Shown here piece by piece: positions 24,854 through 63,832 of a stretch of 64,000 bases of DNA. Origin of the DNA: Candidatus Marinacidobacterales bacterium (GTDB taxonomy: Bacteria > Acidobacteriota > Vicinamibacteria > Marinacidobacterales > SMYC01); NCBI GenBank assembly GCA_965224085.1, contig CBDCYI010000005.1, positions 1,568,001 to 1,632,000 on the forward strand, in the 5' to 3' direction. The notes beneath the pieces were generated by a model. That model was not told the DNA's origin, ran no database searches, and saw only the letters and a list, made by a program, of their open reading frames with translations. Position 1 is the stretch's first letter, and every line of letters starts with the position of its first letter. The position numbers and the translations under genes were made by a program.

Positions 24854-25180
24854 TCAGTCGCAGCCGCTAGCAATGACCAAGGCGCGGCAAACTCTCGCCA
24901 TTTTTTCCGCCGTCACAGAACCCACGAAACGAACAAGCTCGTGTTGTGTGACGGTGAAAACGTTGCACAAATTCACGCACGACGTTTTTTTCAGTCCCTC
25001 GTCAACACCGACTTCAACTTCTGTTGGTGCGCCGCGCAGCGTCGACGTGACCGCCACCACGGTAACGGTGTGTAGAGAGCGAATGAGCGACTGGCGGCTC
25101 AGGATAAGAACGGGACGGCGTTTGTCTGGCTTGGGTCGATCCAGCAGCCAGAGCTCACCTCGGTTCAATCCTCGGGCCAT
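24854..25180 (-). CDS. Type II toxin, PemK/MazF family endoribonuclease
   Basis: RGELW...KRRPVLILS...VTVVAVTS...CVNLCN. Confidence 0.9.
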   Translation of the reverse strand: MARGLNRGELWLLDRPKPDKRRPVLILSRQSLIRSLHTVTVVAVTSTLRGAPTEVEVGVDEGLKKTSCVNLCNVFTVTQHELVRFVGSVTAEKMARVCRALVIASGCD

Positions 25181-25407
25181 GCCTGAGAGCCCACAAGGTT
25201 CGCAACCTCGTCGAGCATCTTGTCTGCGCAACCGTCATAGGCGCGGATGAGCTCGTCATCGATCTCGAGACGTCTCTTGGCCTTGAGATATAGCTGGATG
25301 GCCGAACGAATAAACGCCGACCGGCCGCGCTTCCGGACTTCCGGCTCTCGATCGATGCGCTTCAGAAGGTCTTGATCCATGGACACCTGTATCGCCTGCA
25401 TCGACAT
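25165..25407 (-). CDS. Ribbon-helix-helix (CopG-like) antitoxin
   Basis: IQVSMDQDLLKRID...RSAFIRSAI; upstream of and overlapping the toxin. Confidence 0.85.
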   Translation of the reverse strand: MSMQAIQVSMDQDLLKRIDREPEVRKRGRSAFIRSAIQLYLKAKRRLEIDDELIRAYDGCADKMLDEVANLVGSQAWPED

Positions 25408-25436: not shown

Positions 25437-25798
25437 GAACTATGTTGTGTGTCCAACTCCGAATCTGTCGGTAATTAATAGCGGTTTGCAGGAATCGAGC
25501 GAAGCACGGCGTTACGCGAGGCACGATGCTTGTAGAGCGAGCATTCGTGCAAACCGTAATTGCTAAGCCGCCCAGCTAGCGGCAACTATGCATAAATTGG
25601 AGTGAGAAGACGGTCGGACAGGAAGTCGGAGTTGGACGTCAGGGAGTTGCGAATCGACAGAGATATGGCGGGGAAGATAGAAGAAGGGCCTACCCGGTGC
25701 GGTAACCACCACGGTAGCGTTATGAGTTCGCGACGAGACACACGAGTCCGTTTCAACGACCGGTCGGCGTTGTGAGAGGCGGAGCGAAAGCATCGTGA

Positions 25799-27046
25799 TC
25801 ATGACTCATCTGGAGGGGAGCGGATCTGGAGGTTGATCCGTCGAAGCTTCGTGGAGAGAGGGCATCGGAGCATGCGACCTTTCTTGCAGCGGGGACAGAT
25901 GGTGAGGTCGATGCCGGTGAGCTCCTTGAGCCGCTCGCGCCAGTCCTTGTCCTCGGTGGCACGCGAGCTGACTTGCACGTCGTCGGCGTCGGTCGTGGGT
26001 TTTGTTTTCTCATCGAGCAACTGGCGCGCGACTACGAGCTTGGTGGTCGCATTGGAGGAGGCCATTAAGCCGAAATGGCGAATCTTGACGAAACCTTTCG
26101 GCAGTACGTGCAGGAGGAAACGGCGGATAAATTCCTCTGGGGGGACGGTAACGGTATTACCATTCTTGGTGGCGAAGCAGACGCCGTAGTGGTCGATGCG
26201 AATGAGTCGGCGGTTGGAGATGCCGACCCGGTGGGTATATCGGCCGAGGTAGTTGAAAACCTGCTCTGGGCCACCGAAGGGTCGTTTGCTGTAAACGACC
26301 CAATCGATGCGGTAGAGCTTGTCTTTCAGCTCCCGGAAGCGAGGTGGGTTTCTGAGGTGGGAAGCGTTTGCGCTCAACTCAAGCTCATCTTGGTCGTAAG
26401 CGAGCCTAAGGGCATCGAGAAACTTGCTGCGAAAAAGCCGCGACATGGCCTTGACGGGAAACAGAAAGCGAGGGTTTGCGGCGTTCCACAGCTGCTGAGG
26501 GTGGTTGAGCCCGCCCCCGGAGACGATGCAATGCAGGTGTGGATGGAACAGGAGCTTCCGGGTCCAGGTGTGCAGTACGGCGGTGAAGGCAAGTTGAGCT
26601 TCGAGCCGGCTTTGGCCGAACTCCAATAGAGTTCGCGAGGCGGCGCGAAACAGGAGGTTGAACATGAACTTGGGATTGTCTCGGGCGAGAGGCTTGAGTT
26701 GCTGCGGGAGGGTGAAAACGACGTGGAAATAGTGAGTCGGAAGAATCCTCTGAGCTCGCTGCTCCATCCACTTCGCCTGGGCTAGGCTCTGACACTTGGG
26801 ACAGTGCCGATTGCGGCACGAGTTAAACGAAGGCGCCGCGTATCCGCAAGCGTTACACACGTCGAGATGGCCACCTAGCACCGCCGTGCGACAGTTCTCT
26901 ATAGCCCACATCACCTTGCGCTGCTCGGCTGTCAGCGCATGGGTTTGGCGAAAGCGTGGACCATGTTCGCGGAAGATTTCCGCGATCTCGAGCAGTGGCC
27001 GTGGTGGTGACTCGACGCGGGAAGGACACAGCCCATGGGGCTGCAT
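25799..27046 (-). CDS. IS91-family (Y2 HUH, rolling-circle) transposase
   Basis: Zn-binding CRT..LGG..C..C...SCRNRHCPKC, HVVFTLP, HTW...HPHLHC, YLGRYTHR, RRFLLHVLP.GF..IRHFG. Confidence 0.93.
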   Translation of the reverse strand: MQPHGLCPSRVESPPRPLLEIAEIFREHGPRFRQTHALTAEQRKVMWAIENCRTAVLGGHLDVCNACGYAAPSFNSCRNRHCPKCQSLAQAKWMEQRAQRILPTHYFHVVFTLPQQLKPLARDNPKFMFNLLFRAASRTLLEFGQSRLEAQLAFTAVLHTWTRKLLFHPHLHCIVSGGGLNHPQQLWNAANPRFLFPVKAMSRLFRSKFLDALRLAYDQDELELSANASHLRNPPRFRELKDKLYRIDWVVYSKRPFGGPEQVFNYLGRYTHRVGISNRRLIRIDHYGVCFATKNGNTVTVPPEEFIRRFLLHVLPKGFVKIRHFGLMASSNATTKLVVARQLLDEKTKPTTDADDVQVSSRATEDKDWRERLKELTGIDLTICPRCKKGRMLRCPLSTKLRRINLQIRSPPDES

Positions 27047-27052
27047 GATGAG

Positions 27053-27913
27053 CTAGCCGAGCTTTTTGCCCTTCTTCGTTCCCAGCAAATCGAGAGGGCT
27101 CTTGATGCGCCCCAAGTGCTTTGCTGTTACCTTTGTGTAACGGGCCGTGGTCTGGATGGAGGCATGACCGAGCAGTTGCTGCACGGTACGAATGTCTTCA
27201 CCCAGTTCGAGCATATGTGTGGCAAAACCGTGGCGCAGCGAATGAGGAGTGATACGTTTGGTGAGCCCCGCCTCAGCCACGGCCTTACGAAGAGCCCAGC
27301 GAACGCCATCGTCTGAGATGTGGGCACCAGGATTACGGCCGGGAAACAAGTACTCTCCGCGAGGGCGAGTGGTTTTCCAGTAGTAGCGCAGGAAGCTCAA
27401 CAAACGTTCGCTGAGCGTGACATAGCGGGCCTTGGAGTTCTTGGCGTGACGAATGTGCAAGAGCATGCGTTTGGAGTCGATGTCGGAGTGCTTCAGACAG
27501 CACACCTCGGAAACGCGCAGCCCGGCGCCGTAGGCGCTCATGAGAATCGCGCGGTGTTTGACGGAGTTAACGGAGTGAAGCAAACAATCGACCTCCTCGC
27601 CGCTCAAGATATCGGGTAACGTGCGAGGTTTCTTGGGCCAAGGAATCTTCGCCACCTCCTCCGGGCGGTTGAGTGTGGTTGCGTAGAGAAACTTGAGAGA
27701 GGCGACGTACATGTGGTGGCTGGCCGGAGAGGCCTTCTTCTCGTTAACGAGATGAATCAGATAATCGCGGGTCTTCGGCTCGCCCATCTCGGCGGGTGAG
27801 CGCATGTAATGTGCCGCGAAATGGCGCGCTCGCAGCAGATACTCCTCCTGCGTGGAGCGTGCGAACCCCTTCAGTTTCATGTCGGCAAGCATTTTTTCGC
27901 TAAGGCATCCCAT
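27053..27913 (-). CDS. Tyrosine recombinase/integrase with N-terminal SAM-like domain
   Basis: YGAGLRVSE, HSLRHGFATH, LLGHASIQTTARY (R-H-R-H-Y catalytic set). Confidence 0.93.
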   Translation of the reverse strand: MGCLSEKMLADMKLKGFARSTQEEYLLRARHFAAHYMRSPAEMGEPKTRDYLIHLVNEKKASPASHHMYVASLKFLYATTLNRPEEVAKIPWPKKPRTLPDILSGEEVDCLLHSVNSVKHRAILMSAYGAGLRVSEVCCLKHSDIDSKRMLLHIRHAKNSKARYVTLSERLLSFLRYYWKTTRPRGEYLFPGRNPGAHISDDGVRWALRKAVAEAGLTKRITPHSLRHGFATHMLELGEDIRTVQQLLGHASIQTTARYTKVTAKHLGRIKSPLDLLGTKKGKKLG

Positions 27914-28408
27914 GATTATTCCTCCAGTGATTTAGCAGACGACGACCATCGCCGCCCGCGGGGGACAGGGATGATGCCATGTGTGAGAGAGCGGTTCCGA
28001 GAAACGCAGGACTCGTTGTCCGGAGCGAAGATCGAACGAATGAAGACGACGGCGAAGCCGTCCTCCTTAATCCCTTCTGGCTCCCGTGGCCCGGAAAAAC
28101 AAGGGAAACGGGTTAGAGGCGAGTGAGTTCACCGCGGCTGGCTTGCCGTGCAAAACCCGGAGTCCGGAGCCCCTGCCGGAGGCACCCGTCCGCCCATCGC
28201 CCATAGTGACTCGCATCACGGCGCGTAGGTTGTGTCCAGGGCGGCGCAGCCGGCGCGCGAAGCGCGCGAAACCCTTGACACGACCTGCGCGCCGTGATTC
28301 CCTGGAAGGGCGATGGGCTGCGGCGAAAAAGGCGCAGGCAAAATGCCCCCAGTTTGGCTCACCAGTTCGGGAGAGCTTGCAGGTCCCGCCGCCGCGCGAG
28401 CGGCTTAG

Positions 28409-28948
28409 TGTCTCTTCCGGGGATGGTCGAAACCCCTCGCCTTTAGGCGAAGAGAAGATCGTGGTATTGTGGTCGCGTGCGTCACTACAGGCACGGAGCG
28501 CACACGAAAACGGACCTAAAAGCGCACATCGTTTGGATACCGAAATACCGTAAAAAGGTTTTGATCGGTCCAGTAGCGGTTCGTGTGCGCGATCTGATTC
28601 GTCAGATCGCGATGGAACATGAGCTGCACATAATCTCGGGTAAGGTTGCACGCGACCACGTCCACGTGTTCGTATCCTACCGACCACACCAGGACCTGAG
28701 TACGATCGTGCAGTGGCTAAAAGGAATAAGCTCCCGAGTACTCCTTCAGGAGTTTGCTCACCTGAGGAAGAAGTTTTGGGGCCGGCACTTCTGGGCCCGA
28801 GGATATCTGGCGGTGAGTTCAGGAAGCATAACGGACGAGATGGTAAAGGAGTACATAGACTCCCAGGATGGCGAGCCTCTTCACGACGACAGTCAATTTC
28901 CAATTGACAGCCCTTGAAGCCACCGCCTTCTAGGCGGTGGTTGTTCAC
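28409..28948 (+). mobile_element. IS200/IS605-family element, tnpA only (copy 1)
   Basis: Follows TTAG (28405-28408); subterminal hairpins CTCGCC-TTTA-GGCGA and CCACCGCC-TTCTA-GGCGGTGG; ends in TCAC. Confidence 0.82.
28477..28917 (+). CDS. tnpA: IS200-family Y1 HUH transposase
   Basis: HIVWIPKYR, DHVH, LKGISSR, FWARGY, EYI..Q. Confidence 0.95.
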   Translation: MRHYRHGAHTKTDLKAHIVWIPKYRKKVLIGPVAVRVRDLIRQIAMEHELHIISGKVARDHVHVFVSYRPHQDLSTIVQWLKGISSRVLLQEFAHLRKKFWGRHFWARGYLAVSSGSITDEMVKEYIDSQDGEPLHDDSQFPIDSP

Positions 28949-28979
28949 TTCAATTAAAGTTATAATTCACACGCCGCCT

Positions 28980-61288: not shown

Positions 61289-62375
61289 TGCCTTGGTGCA
61301 CAACTCGCGATCTAGGTCCACAATTGTCCTGTACTCGCGGATACGAGGTTCCCCATGAGCATTTTCAAACGCACTCAGCGGAAGTATGTGAAGAAGGCCT
61401 ATCGCGTGAGGAATTGGCGTGAATATGAGGCGGGTCTACGCAACCGCGGGAGCCTGACCGTCTGGATCTCGCTCACCGCCGGCAAGCTTGTGAACTGGGA
61501 CGCGCCCCGGCCAAGGAGGAGGAAACCGGGCCGTCAACGCAAGTACTCGAACCACGCCATCGAGACGGCTGTCACCCTGGGCATGGTGTTTCATCTGTCG
61601 TCTAGGCAGAGCGAGGGATTGCTGCGATCGTTGTTCGCTCTGATGAAGCTAGACAATGATGTGCCCGATCACACCACGATCTCGAGGCGCAAGGCGAAGC
61701 TGGGTAAGGTCCCCTTCTACCAAGACAAGCAGAAGACGCCGTTGCACATCTTGATCGACAGCAGCGGTCTCGCTGTCCACGCCGGCCAGCTGCGCAGAGC
61801 ACCAAATAGCAGGGACTATCGCAAGCTCCATCTGTGTGTCGACGAGCAGAGTGGCGAAGTCGTCGCCGGCGAGCTGACGAGCAAAAGAGCCCGCGATTCA
61901 TCGCGGGTTGCATCGCTTGTCGGACAGAGCGACAGTCCCATCTCATCGGCCAGAGCTGACACCGCATACGACGCCAGCGGCGTCTATGAGGCAATCGAGA
62001 ATCACAGCGCTCATCGCTCGCCGAGGGTGCTGATACCGCCGCGCAAGGGCGCCCAGCTCGCATCGGGGCCGGCGAGCAGCCGACAGCGCAATCGCAACAT
62101 TGCAGCACAAGCTCGGCTCGGCAAACGAAAGTGGCACACAGAATCGGGCTACAGCAAACGGAGCAAAGTCGAGACAACGTTCCATCGCTACAAGGCTATC
62201 GTGGGCTCAGCGATGCGAGCGAGAGGGTTGGCGGCACAGAGAGTCGAGGCAAGGATCGGGTGCAAGATTCTCCACACCATGACGGCGCTCGGGATGCCTG
62301 ATAGCGAGATGATCGGATGATGGGAGCCGGGGCCAAGCGAGTTCTCGGCCTCTATCGGAGTTGTGCACCAAGGCA
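61289..62375 (+). mobile_element. IS5-family (IS903-group-like) insertion sequence
   Basis: Perfect terminal inverted repeats TGCCTTGGTGCACAACTC / GAGTTGTGCACCAAGGCA; no target-site duplication visible. Confidence 0.88.
61355..62320 (+). CDS. IS5-family DDE transposase
   Basis: NWREYEAGLRNRGSLT, PDHTTISRR, IDSSG, KLHL, ADTAYD, GYSKRSKVET. Confidence 0.93.
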   Translation: MSIFKRTQRKYVKKAYRVRNWREYEAGLRNRGSLTVWISLTAGKLVNWDAPRPRRRKPGRQRKYSNHAIETAVTLGMVFHLSSRQSEGLLRSLFALMKLDNDVPDHTTISRRKAKLGKVPFYQDKQKTPLHILIDSSGLAVHAGQLRRAPNSRDYRKLHLCVDEQSGEVVAGELTSKRARDSSRVASLVGQSDSPISSARADTAYDASGVYEAIENHSAHRSPRVLIPPRKGAQLASGPASSRQRNRNIAAQARLGKRKWHTESGYSKRSKVETTFHRYKAIVGSAMRARGLAAQRVEARIGCKILHTMTALGMPDSEMIG

Positions 62376-62697
62376 CCTCCTCGCCGCTCAAGATATCGGG
62401 TAACGTGCGAGGTTTCTTGGGCCAAGGAATCTTCGCCACCTCCTCCGGGCGGTTGAGTGTGGTTGCGTAGAGAAACTTGAGAGAGGCGACGTACATGTGG
62501 TGGCTGGCCGGAGAGGCCTTCTTCTCGTTAACGAGATGAATCAGATAATCGCGGGTCTCCGGCTCGCCCATCTCGGCGGGTGAGCGCATGTAATGTGCCG
62601 CGAAATGGCGCGCTCGCAGCAGATACTCCTCCTGCGTGGAGCGTGCGAACCCCTTCAGTTTCATGTCGGCAAGCATTTTTTCGCTAAGGCATCCCAT
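62375..62697 (-). pseudogene. Tyrosine recombinase, 5' third only, cut by IS5
   Basis: Matches 27053..27913 up to LSGEEV except one K/E change. Confidence 0.9.
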
Positions 62698-63247
62698 GAT
62701 TATTCCTCCAGTGATTTAGCAGACGACGACCATCGCCGCCCGCGGGGGACAGGGATGATGCCATGTGTGAGAGAGCGGTTCCGAGAAACGCAGGACTCGT
62801 TGTCCAGAGCGAAGATCGAACGAATGAAGACGACGGCGAAGCCGTCCTCCTTAATCCCTTCTGGCTCCCGTGGCCCGGAAAAACAAGGGAAACGGGTTAG
62901 AGGCGAGTGAGTTCACCGCGGCTGGCTTGCCGTGCAAAACCCGGAGTCCGGAGCCCCTGCCGGAGGCACCCGTCCGCCCATCGCCCATAGTGACTCGCAT
63001 CACGGCGCGTAGGTTGTGTCCAGGGCGGCGCAGCCGGCGCGCGAAGCGCGCGAAACCCTTGACAGAAGGGCGATGGGCTGCGGCGAAAAAGGCGCAGGCA
63101 AAATGCCCCCAGTTTGACACGACCTGCGCGCCGTGATTCCCTGGAAGGGCGATGGGCTGCGGCGAAAAAGGCGCAGGCAAAATGCCCCCAGTTTGGCTCA
63201 CCAGTTCGGGAGAGCTTGCAGGTCCCGCCGCCGCGCGAGCGGCTTAG

Positions 63248-63787
63248 TGTCTCTTCCGGGGATGGTCGAAACCCCTCGCCTTTAGGCGAAGAGAAGATCG
63301 TGGTATTGTGGTCGCGTGCGTCACTACAGGCACGGAGCGCACACGAAAACGGACCTAAAAGCGCACATCGTTTGGATACCGAAATATCGTAAAAAGGTTT
63401 TGATCGGTCCAGTAGCGGTTCGTGTGCGCGATCTGATTCGTCAGATCGCGATGGAACATGAGCTGCACATAATCTCGGGTAAGGTTGCACGCGACCACGT
63501 CCACGTGTTCGTATCCTACCGACCACACCAGGACCTGAGTACGATCGTGCAGTGGCTAAAAGGAATAAGCTCCCGAGTACTCCTTCAGGAGTTTGCTCAC
63601 CTGAGGAAGAAGTTTTGGGGCCGGCACTTCTGGGCCCGAGGATATCTGGCGGTGAGTTCAGGAAGCATAACGGACGAGATGGTAAAGGAGTACATAGACT
63701 CCCAGGATGGCGAGCCTCTTCACGACGACAGTCAATTTCCAATTGACAGCCCTTGAAGCCACCGCCTTCTAGGCGGTGGTTGTTCAC
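63248..63787 (+). mobile_element. IS200/IS605-family element, tnpA only (copy 2)
   Basis: Same ends and same TTAG|...TCAC|TTCAAT context as copy 1. Confidence 0.82.
63316..63756 (+). CDS. tnpA: IS200-family Y1 HUH transposase
   Basis: Protein identical to 28477..28917. Confidence 0.95.
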   Translation: MRHYRHGAHTKTDLKAHIVWIPKYRKKVLIGPVAVRVRDLIRQIAMEHELHIISGKVARDHVHVFVSYRPHQDLSTIVQWLKGISSRVLLQEFAHLRKKFWGRHFWARGYLAVSSGSITDEMVKEYIDSQDGEPLHDDSQFPIDSP

Positions 63788-63832
63788 TTCAATAGGCGTG
63801 GTTCTTTTTTTTAATAGACAAAGGCGCATTCT

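Follow-up and report, generated by a model that had tools for sequence, protein, structure and literature searches.

How does an insertion sequence (IS) define its ends, and how does it insert, when it encodes a tyrosine recombinase next to its HUH transposase? The question is raised by an element in the 64,000-nt stretch of contig CBDCYI010000005.1 (Candidatus Marinacidobacterales bacterium, Acidobacteriota) that was analysed here and is called the window. Positions 25475-28953 of the window are a copy of a multi-copy IS91-family IS, of the subgroup in which an Xer/IntI-like recombinase gene lies directly upstream of the Y2 HUH gene. An original prediction, made from the sequence of the window, had recognized the two enzymes and had proposed a distinct two-enzyme mechanism with two equivalent hairpin ends. 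A role of both enzymes and of single-stranded hairpin DNA is indeed the best reading; the two equivalent ends are not retained. Instead, the ends of the element carry the parts of a split hairpin, which resembles the attC site of integrons once the ends are joined.

Boundaries and target sites of the mobile unit

The genome contains many copies and fragments of the element at 99-100% identity, with at least 12 copies at that level. The common limits of 13 gene-downstream and 12 gene-upstream ends place the whole mobile unit at 25475-28953 on the minus strand. All of the 13 gene-downstream (window-left) ends start as ...|(A/T/G)(A/T)TTAATAGCGG, which corresponds to window 25473-25475 and is 84-86 bp outside the left end of the original prediction. 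The gene-upstream (window-right) ends read ...GCGGCTTAGTTCAA in 11 of 12 copies and TTCGA in the remaining one.

The exact unit is given by the copy at C5:390789-393739, which splits a Ser/Thr kinase gene. The orthologues in two genomes of the same genus (G401 and G403) are whole, and the kinase flanks abut there with 0 extra bases. Their empty site has the sequence ...GACCTCT|CTTCCGTTATCC...; the occupied one is ...GACCTTT|TTAATAGCGG...GCTTAGTTCAA|CTTCCGTTATCC... Because of this empty site, the inserted unit is exactly TTAATAGCGG...GCTTAGTTCAA, i.e. window 25475-28953, or TTGAAC...CTATTAA in gene orientation. TTGAAC is thus part of the element, and no target sequence is duplicated upon insertion, as is typical of the IS91 family. 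Intact copies measure 2,941 bp; the copy in the window measures 3,479 bp, composed of 2,939 bp of its own sequence and a nested IS200 element of 540 bp.

Several other delimitations were considered. That TTGAAC would be an IS91-style target remaining in the flank is ruled out by the empty site. A unit defined by the Y2 enzyme and shifted by 2 nt (GAAC...TT) suits the flanks that start with TT but fails at the kinase site, and the tetranucleotides that it implies (CGGT, CCAT, ACCT etc.) are unlike those of IS91. The fragment at C5:277130-277614 was evaluated as a gene-less miniature derivative and turned out to be a truncated end.

The original prediction had placed the ends at 25559 and 28954, as two equivalent hairpin-TTAG-CAAT termini. 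Both motifs are present exactly as described: GCCGC-TAGCTGG-GCGGC-TTAG-CAAT on the minus strand (25583-25559), and GCCGC-CGCGCGA-GCGGC-TTAG on the plus strand (28388-28408), followed by IS200 (28409-28948) and TTCAAT (28949-28954). They are inverted, and in consensus copies the two motifs are identical to each other over GCGGCTTAGTTCAAT. In an intact copy (L004) they form the core of the longest inverted repeat, with 31-nt arms that are 81% complementary and contain GTAATTGAACTAAGCCGC. As an inverted pair they are also conserved among homologues, in all seven multi-copy families. The right end stands essentially where it had been placed. The left motif, in contrast, was found to lie about 84 bp inside the element: all 13 gene-downstream ends extend 84 bp past it, the empty site agrees, and the relatives extend past it in 7/7 families, by about 62-85 bp in the five that were measured. 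One motif is terminal and the other subterminal, with a conserved hairpin module of about 85 nt beyond it that belongs to the mobile unit. Equivalent termini are therefore refuted by the boundaries and retain next to no credence.

Insertion occurs in one orientation, at (G/A)|TT, with a weak TAA-N5-6 box before it. Among 74 unique flanks at the gene-upstream side, collected from many genomes, 56 have G and 15 have A at position -1, with an A/T-rich stretch from -9 to -6. TAA occurs at -13 to -6 in 22 of 70 sites, compared to 5 of 70 control windows. For 24 targets from seven genomes both flanks are known. Of these, 21 have T at +1 and +2, 16 have A at -8 and 14 have T at -9; at -1, 15 have G and 7 have A (e.g. 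GGTAAttgcaG|TTAGG and GATAAtgtgG|TTAGAGG). Judged by these alignments, the target looks like a weak two-box site that is cut at one edge of the spacer, much like the simple site of integrons (TAA-N5-6-G|TT). As read from the predicted folds, the helix of the folded junction offers a similar xAAC-N5-|TT arrangement. The crossover position deduced from the junctions, between G and TT, is that of integrons. The tetranucleotide targets of IS91 were not recovered: in 21 of 24 sites the flank at the ori side starts with TT (top strand; AA| when read on the bottom strand), with no GTTC/CTTG pattern. The two junctions (N6|TTGAAC at the gene-upstream side and CTATTAA|TT at the gene-downstream side) have no common overlap sequence, and a single strand exchange is therefore favoured.

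The targets in this genome are ordinary genes and spacers, and no insertion into an attC site was seen there. The possibility that targets are generally hairpins or attC sites was rejected, as the fold of the flanks at -50 to -5 (-4.7 kcal/mol) is close to that of the controls (-4.26 kcal/mol; Wilcoxon p 0.35, n 70).

The split hairpin and its joined form

In gene orientation the element consists of TTGAAC-TAA-short palindrome, the recombinase gene, the Y2 gene, an oriIS-like motif, a second short palindrome, TTAGTTCAAT, a hairpin of about 85 nt and the spacer CTATTAA. The two GTTSAAC boxes complement each other. Below, the parts are labelled R'', L'', L' and R', as in attC sites.

At the gene-upstream end of the window copy, the palindrome GCCGC-N7-GCGGC with TTAG is located at 28388-28408 (minus strand; terIS-like on the bottom strand, palindrome-TTA-G...). 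The terminal box R' (28949-28953, minus strand; TTCAA on the plus strand) is delimited by the junction alignments and the empty site. Together with the C of 28405-28408 it reads TTGAAC in gene orientation. IS200 separates R' from the rest of this end; with IS200 removed, the right end on the plus strand reads GCGGCTTAG|TTCAAT.

The gene-downstream end, also on the minus strand, is more elaborate. It starts with the oriIS-like motif CCAATTTATGCATAG (25586-25602; TTCAATCCCCATAG in relatives), followed by a short palindrome GCCGC-N7-GCGGC (25567-25583), the left hairpin of the original prediction. Among families this palindrome varies more than the one at the gene-upstream end. Next comes the internal box R'' (25557-25566), which resembles an integron inverse core and is complementary to TAATTGAACTAA at the gene-upstream end. 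Its sequence is TTAG-CAATTA in the window copy, against TTAGTTCAATTA in the other nine copies. The terminal hairpin module (25477-25561) carries the arms L'' and L', recovered by a repeat search (25477-25495 and 25543-25561, 84% complementary) and by folding; its core arms CGGTTTGCA (25482-25490) and TGCAAACCG (25548-25556) enclose a loop of about 50 nt. The spacer CTATTAA (25475-25481), as defined by the junction alignments, the junction fold and the empty site, closes the unit. Its first four bases, CTAT, are the one-sided bulge of the joined hairpin, and the crossover falls after its final A.

The 2-nt deletion in R'' is private to the window copy: nine other copies read TTAGTTCAATTACGG and the window alone reads TTAGCAATTACGG. 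Relative to the window, the contigs of four sequencing runs have AA inserted behind 25562. The missing TT is located precisely at TTAG|TT, the insertion point of IS200-type elements, and could be the footprint of an imprecise excision or a plain deletion.

To compare the architecture among families, the ends were defined by copy-against-copy comparison in six further genomes, with transposases that are 44-50% identical to that of the window. The same architecture was found in 7/7 multi-copy families. At the gene-upstream side all have flank |(G)TTG(A/G)AC-(T/G)AA-short GC palindrome, followed by the recombinase and transposase genes. At the gene-downstream side a ATCCCCATAG-like motif is followed after 8-30 nt by a box complementary to the gene-upstream end (GTTCAAC/GTCCAAC), a hairpin (stem of 9-20 bp, loop of 4-59 nt), a spacer of 4-7 nt and then |TT of the flank. 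In the five families in which an ungapped search located the complementary box, 82-85 nt separate its end from the gene-downstream end.

The design is also found beyond these families. Of 27 loci, 17 matched the search pattern for the gene-downstream design and 20 that for the gene-upstream design. More than 121 exact matches were obtained with the motif of the gene-upstream end, TTGAACTAAACCGC-N3-8-GCGGTA. Proteobacteria, Bacteroidota, Acidobacteriota, Planctomycetota, Clostridia and others are among the matches listed. An equivalent hairpin of different sequence is present in at least 13 other families. The sequence of its arms varies among 13 families and the pairing is kept, with Watson-Crick pairs at 179 of 208 positions. 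When 15 natural sequences are folded as single-stranded DNA, 14 form the closing stem and nine fold better than all of 200 shuffles.

Some relatives show variations at their ends. In G311 (L065-L067) a 4.6-kb version has an IS21 with IstA/IstB genes nested in it, which separates the recombinase gene from the gene-upstream end. This version occurs at three sites and the composite therefore moved as a unit; given the position of the IS21, the end works at a distance from the genes. In G139 a solo gene-upstream end of 67 nt (L068, about 2774-2840 in gene orientation) is located 233 nt upstream of a complete copy, perhaps as the remnant of an earlier insertion. In G279 (L052-L054) the end is TGAAC in two copies and TTGAAC in a third and in a related tandem array; because of this one-base fuzziness, the crossover may slip by 1 nt.

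When the two ends are joined in silico, a single long hairpin is formed in 7/7 families, on either strand. Its outer stem, made up of palindrome arm, TAA and box, is followed by a bulge on one side only and then by an inner stem with a loop. The order of the parts, R''-L''-loop-L'-bulge-R', is that of an attC site. The bulge, 4-7 nt long, lies between L' and R' in all seven folds.

Joined ends also occur naturally, as tandem copies. A Saprospiraceae chromosome (L172-L175, OZ245751.1) carries four head-to-tail copies with an exact spacing of 2,406 bp, and a Solibacteraceae contig (L115-L116, CAWEAQ010000002.1) at least three, with a period of 2,599 bp. The tandem junctions read ...inner stem-spacer-G|TTGAAC-TAA-palindrome and the joined hairpin site is intact in them; the L115 junction folds at -46.4 kcal/mol (z -7.6). 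The geometry of an attC site was found solely in the joined form, in the 7/7 in-silico junctions and in the natural junctions of L115 and L173.

The two strands of the joined hairpin differ. In several families the pairing of R'' with R' includes one A.C mismatch if the top strand folds, and a G.T wobble at the same place if the bottom strand does. Of the non-Watson-Crick positions in the inner (hairpin) stems, 13 are G.T on the bottom strand and 7 on the top. The outer stems, counted in the five families with a reliable alignment, give 8 and 1. The bottom strand has the more stable fold in 6/7 families (5/7 with a shorter construct). This pattern is suggestive of the bottom strand as the folding strand, i.e. 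the same strand that is transferred in IS91 and recombined in integrons.

The two enzymes and the possible routes of transposition

The Pfam and NCBIfam assignments agree with the two enzymes first proposed. The Y2 HUH transposase (415 aa, 25799-27046, minus strand; Pfam Y2_Tnp 6.3e-55) has the N-terminal zinc-binding domain of the IS91 family (Zn_Tnp_IS91 3.4e-31) and scores 407.8 bits against NCBIfam NF033538 (cutoff 125). Its motifs HPHLHC and YLGRYTHR are kept across the families compared. Among solved structures, no relative of the transposase was found. The gene of the tyrosine recombinase (286 aa, 27053-27913, minus strand; Pfam Phage_integrase 9.3e-42) is separated from the transposase gene by 6 nt. 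The recombinase is of the Xer/IntI kind, with XerA (4a8e, 1.4e-40), IntI4 (2a3v, 2e-33, in two stretches) and XerD as nearest solved structures. The integron integrase model TIGR02249 likewise matches in two stretches, with 191.7 bits vs a cutoff of 265. These two-stretch matches agree with a preprint (10.1101/542381) that groups the recombinases of IS91 elements with IntI in an 'integron-like' subgroup, minus the IntI insertion. Relatives of the transposase (38-54% identity) were found in 39 of 401 genomes sampled from the phylum, a tally that counts the genome studied here (G000) and the unpublished G049. The recombinase gene immediately precedes the transposase gene, in the same orientation, in 27 of 29 related loci.

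The gene pair as such is already known. ISfinder lists IS91-family members with an upstream integrase gene, such as ISAzo26 and ISShvi3, and these share the two-gene layout of the present element. PGAP labels such pairs on plasmids 'IS91 family transposase' and 'tyrosine recombinase/integron integrase', and ISShvi3 was reported next to an integron attC site (PMC9229058). The literature searched, which did not include TnPedia and ISfinder, yielded no description of how the recombinase-bearing subgroup moves, or of its ends and targets.

For canonical IS91 elements, PMC13181058 (2026) describes targets of CTTG or GTTC beside oriIS, and a terIS upstream of the genes with one palindrome adjoining the cleavage tetranucleotide (GTTC in IS801 and IS1294). 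According to the same text oriIS contains one or two palindromes, and the functional intermediate of IS91 is a single-stranded circle of the bottom strand. Four enterobacterial plasmid copies (L221-L224), with ends set by mutual comparison, served as canonical reference here. They start with |(T)GAAC-CACG-palindrome (GCAGCC..GGCTGC) and end with ...TTTTTCAATTTCCTATACGT|, followed by GAAC in three of the four. Like IS91, IS801 and IS1294, the present element has a Y2 HUH enzyme with a zinc-binding N-terminus, creates no target duplication and has a high copy number that implies copy-and-paste spread. Its gene-upstream end has the terIS design of GAAC with a subterminal palindrome, with the boundary 2 nt further out, and a TTCAAT-YYCC-ATA motif of the oriIS type lies downstream of the transposase gene. 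The absence of ori/ter-type ends that had been implied for this element is not supported. Unlike in the canonical elements, the oriIS-like motif (TTCAATCCCCATAG, or TTTTTTCAATCCCCATAG in L074, vs TTCAATTTCCTATAC) is located about 110-130 nt inside the gene-downstream end rather than at the terminus; the extra sequence contains the box complementary to the other end and the hairpin. The recombinase gene is additional, insertion is at (G/A)|TT with a TAA box at some distance instead of at GTTC/CTTG beside oriIS, and the transposase shares only about 29% identity with those of the enterobacterial copies. From these comparisons the family looks like an IS91-type core that has acquired a recombinase gene and a terminal box plus hairpin module, and in which the tetranucleotide target of the IS91 family is no longer used.

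The extra features point to integrons. The integron core site has the consensus GTTRRRY and the inverse core RYYYAAC, which GTTGAAC and GTTCAAC/GTCCAAC fit, respectively. As in an integron cassette, there is an inner stem with a variable loop, and a crossover at G|TT leaves TTGAAC as the first and the hairpin as the last part of the unit. Head-to-tail arrays (here the tandem copies), a bottom strand that folds better and a recombinase of the IntI/Xer clade are further similarities. In contrast to integrons, the unit encodes its own recombinase together with a HUH enzyme, and its targets are ordinary genes and spacers. The window contains neither attI nor a cassette promoter nor an array; its recombinase gene is part of the mobile unit, which has a toxin-antitoxin pair on one side and a glycosyltransferase gene on the other. 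CTX phage and similar systems combine the same kinds of enzymes: a HUH replication protein makes single-stranded circles, for which tandem copies serve as template, and Xer-type tyrosine recombinases recombine the hairpin of the strand by a single strand exchange. CTX phage depends on the host XerCD and the chromosomal dif site, whereas here the recombinase is borne by the element, the targets are many and loosely defined, and phage genes are absent.

The favoured explanation is that the HUH enzyme supplies single-stranded circles and that the element's own IntI/Xer-like recombinase inserts their folded hairpin. Taken as a whole, this account is given somewhat better than even chances. The Y2 enzyme would make single-stranded circular copies, probably of the bottom strand, as is the case for IS91 TnpA. 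Such circles could arise from an excised circle or from tandem copies, with a predicted joint of ...GCAAACCGCTATTAA|TTGAACTAAGCC, i.e. CTATTAA|TTGAAC, and palindrome-TTAGTTCAA is the candidate single-stranded cleavage site of the Y2 enzyme. The recombinase would then join the folded junction to a double-stranded target, exchanging only one strand, at the bottom-strand AA|C, and replication would finish the insertion, as in the insertion of integron cassettes or the integration of CTX phage. A more far-reaching version, in which the elements are self-mobilising integron cassettes, the HUH enzyme only makes bottom-strand circles, the IntI-like recombinase inserts the attC-like hairpin and an evolutionary link between IS91 and integrons could be marked, is put forward tentatively and at somewhat less than even chances.

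The same components might also be explained by ordinary rolling-circle transposition of the IS91 type. The Y2 enzyme would both make and insert the circle, the recombinase would be an accessory protein (resolving multimers or tandems, or assisting termination like Orf121) and the hairpins would be oriIS/terIS palindromes. The Y2 enzyme is intact, with its catalytic motifs conserved in the families compared, an oriIS-like TTCAATCCCCATAG is retained, and the gene-upstream end TT-GAAC-TAA-palindrome, set against (T)GAAC-CACG-palindrome in the four enterobacterial elements, is of canonical terIS design. There is precedent as well, as PMC13181058 reports that IS91 TnpA alone inserts bottom-strand circles, that IS91 has an upstream accessory gene and that the oriIS of IS91 and IS801 has two palindromes. 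Such a route does not account for the flanks, however. On the ori side these read ...AA| in 21 of 24 sites and not GTTC/CTTG, whereas three of the four canonical elements abut GAAC. GAAC is 2 nt inside the boundary, about 110-130 nt separate the oriIS-like motif from the end, and the targets have a box 6-10 nt off, at the other side of the crossover, where tetranucleotide recognition predicts none. This explanation is considered unlikely. The opposite assignment, a double-stranded integrative element that is moved by the recombinase alone with two strand exchanges, is rated as less likely still. The Y2 enzyme would then replicate the excised circle like the initiator of a rolling-circle plasmid, or be a relic. 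Boundaries and target do look recombinase-made, the tandem arrays resemble repeated site-specific integration, and a circle would have a palindrome-GTTC nick site adjoining the oriIS-like motif. Two strand exchanges, however, would be expected to leave a common overlap of 6-8 bp, which the junctions lack, and at least 12 copies at 99-100% identity require a copying step. The strand-biased wobbles point to folded single strands, and the Y2 gene is no relic, since it is kept beside the recombinase gene in 27 of 29 loci.

Several points weigh against circle formation by the HUH enzyme followed by insertion by the recombinase. The cuts could belong to either enzyme, as a bottom-strand AA|C would suit a recombinase or a nickase alike. 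A solitary copy has one palindrome-GTTC site per strand, and the model leaves rolling-circle copying from a single copy unexplained. The recombinase falls under every NCBIfam cutoff (best models XerA with 199 bits and the integron integrase TIGR02249 with 191.7 bits) and has no IntI-specific insertion, the extra domain of integron integrases. The joined hairpin has a one-sided bulge of 4-7 nt instead of the extrahelical bases of attC, which mark the recombining strand there, and the wobble bias comes from related families and small numbers. There are no tandem copies in this genome. The window copy, with its 2-nt deletion in R'' and IS200 within its end, may be crippled. A circular or single-stranded form was not seen: the contigs of the runs X19, X21, X22 and X24 contain no joints, which counts neither way.

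IS91-family and ISCR elements move resistance genes and integrons collect them; both are single-stranded-DNA systems that have so far been treated separately. The element described here is abundant and phylogenetically broad, encodes both a HUH enzyme and an IntI-like recombinase, and carries the two parts of a split attC-like site at its ends. It would offer a simple model for the production and insertion of folded single strands, for the presence of such elements in integron arrays, and for the origin of attC sites and integrases. For annotation, exact rules for ends and targets become available for a subgroup that is now labelled by its two genes alone.

Nested IS200 elements and neighbouring features

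The nested IS200-family element (540 bp, 28409-28948, plus strand; Pfam Y1_Tnp 3e-40) is inserted 3' of TTAG and contains a Y1 transposase gene (146 aa, 28477-28917, plus strand; Pfam Y1_Tnp). Its 33 full copies in the genome are flanked by TTAG at the left in 32 and by TT at the right in 30, so that TTAG|TT is the preferred site. The TTAG in both motifs of the IS91-type element is such a landing site, which explains the nested IS200. Three IS200 copies are located in the TTAG of its gene-upstream end, and one IS200 and a 591-bp relative after the internal TTAG; together these are five insertions in about 26 of the 8,794 TTAG sites of the genome. A requirement of IS200 for the hairpin itself was rejected, as most of the 33 flanks have no hairpin and TTAG alone is common. 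The single-nucleotide polymorphisms (SNPs) of IS200 were considered as a test for its movement together with the element; the copies are too similar, with the IS200 in the window differing from the other two at one site. A head-to-tail pair of IS200 is found at C5:1919326-1920405.

The 591-bp element (C4:1346154-1346742, L010/L022 region) has at least ten copies, and one sits right after the internal TTAG of another IS91-type copy. Its first bases resemble the left end of IS200, and it is probably a non-autonomous or second member of the IS200 family.

A second, truncated copy of the IS91-type element is present in the window at 62375-63793. It retains the gene-upstream end and codons 1-108 of the recombinase gene, contains an internal duplication of 52 bp, and has IS200 nested at the same TTAG site as the main copy. 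In the main copy, the leader upstream of the recombinase gene contains an inverted repeat (28215-28298; 27 nt, 89% complementary, 30 nt between the arms). It is found in other copies too, including the intact L004, and may be a regulatory or strand-initiation site. The element is bordered at the left (24854-25407) by genes for a MazF/PemK-like toxin and a ribbon-helix-helix antitoxin, and at the right by a group 1 glycosyltransferase gene.

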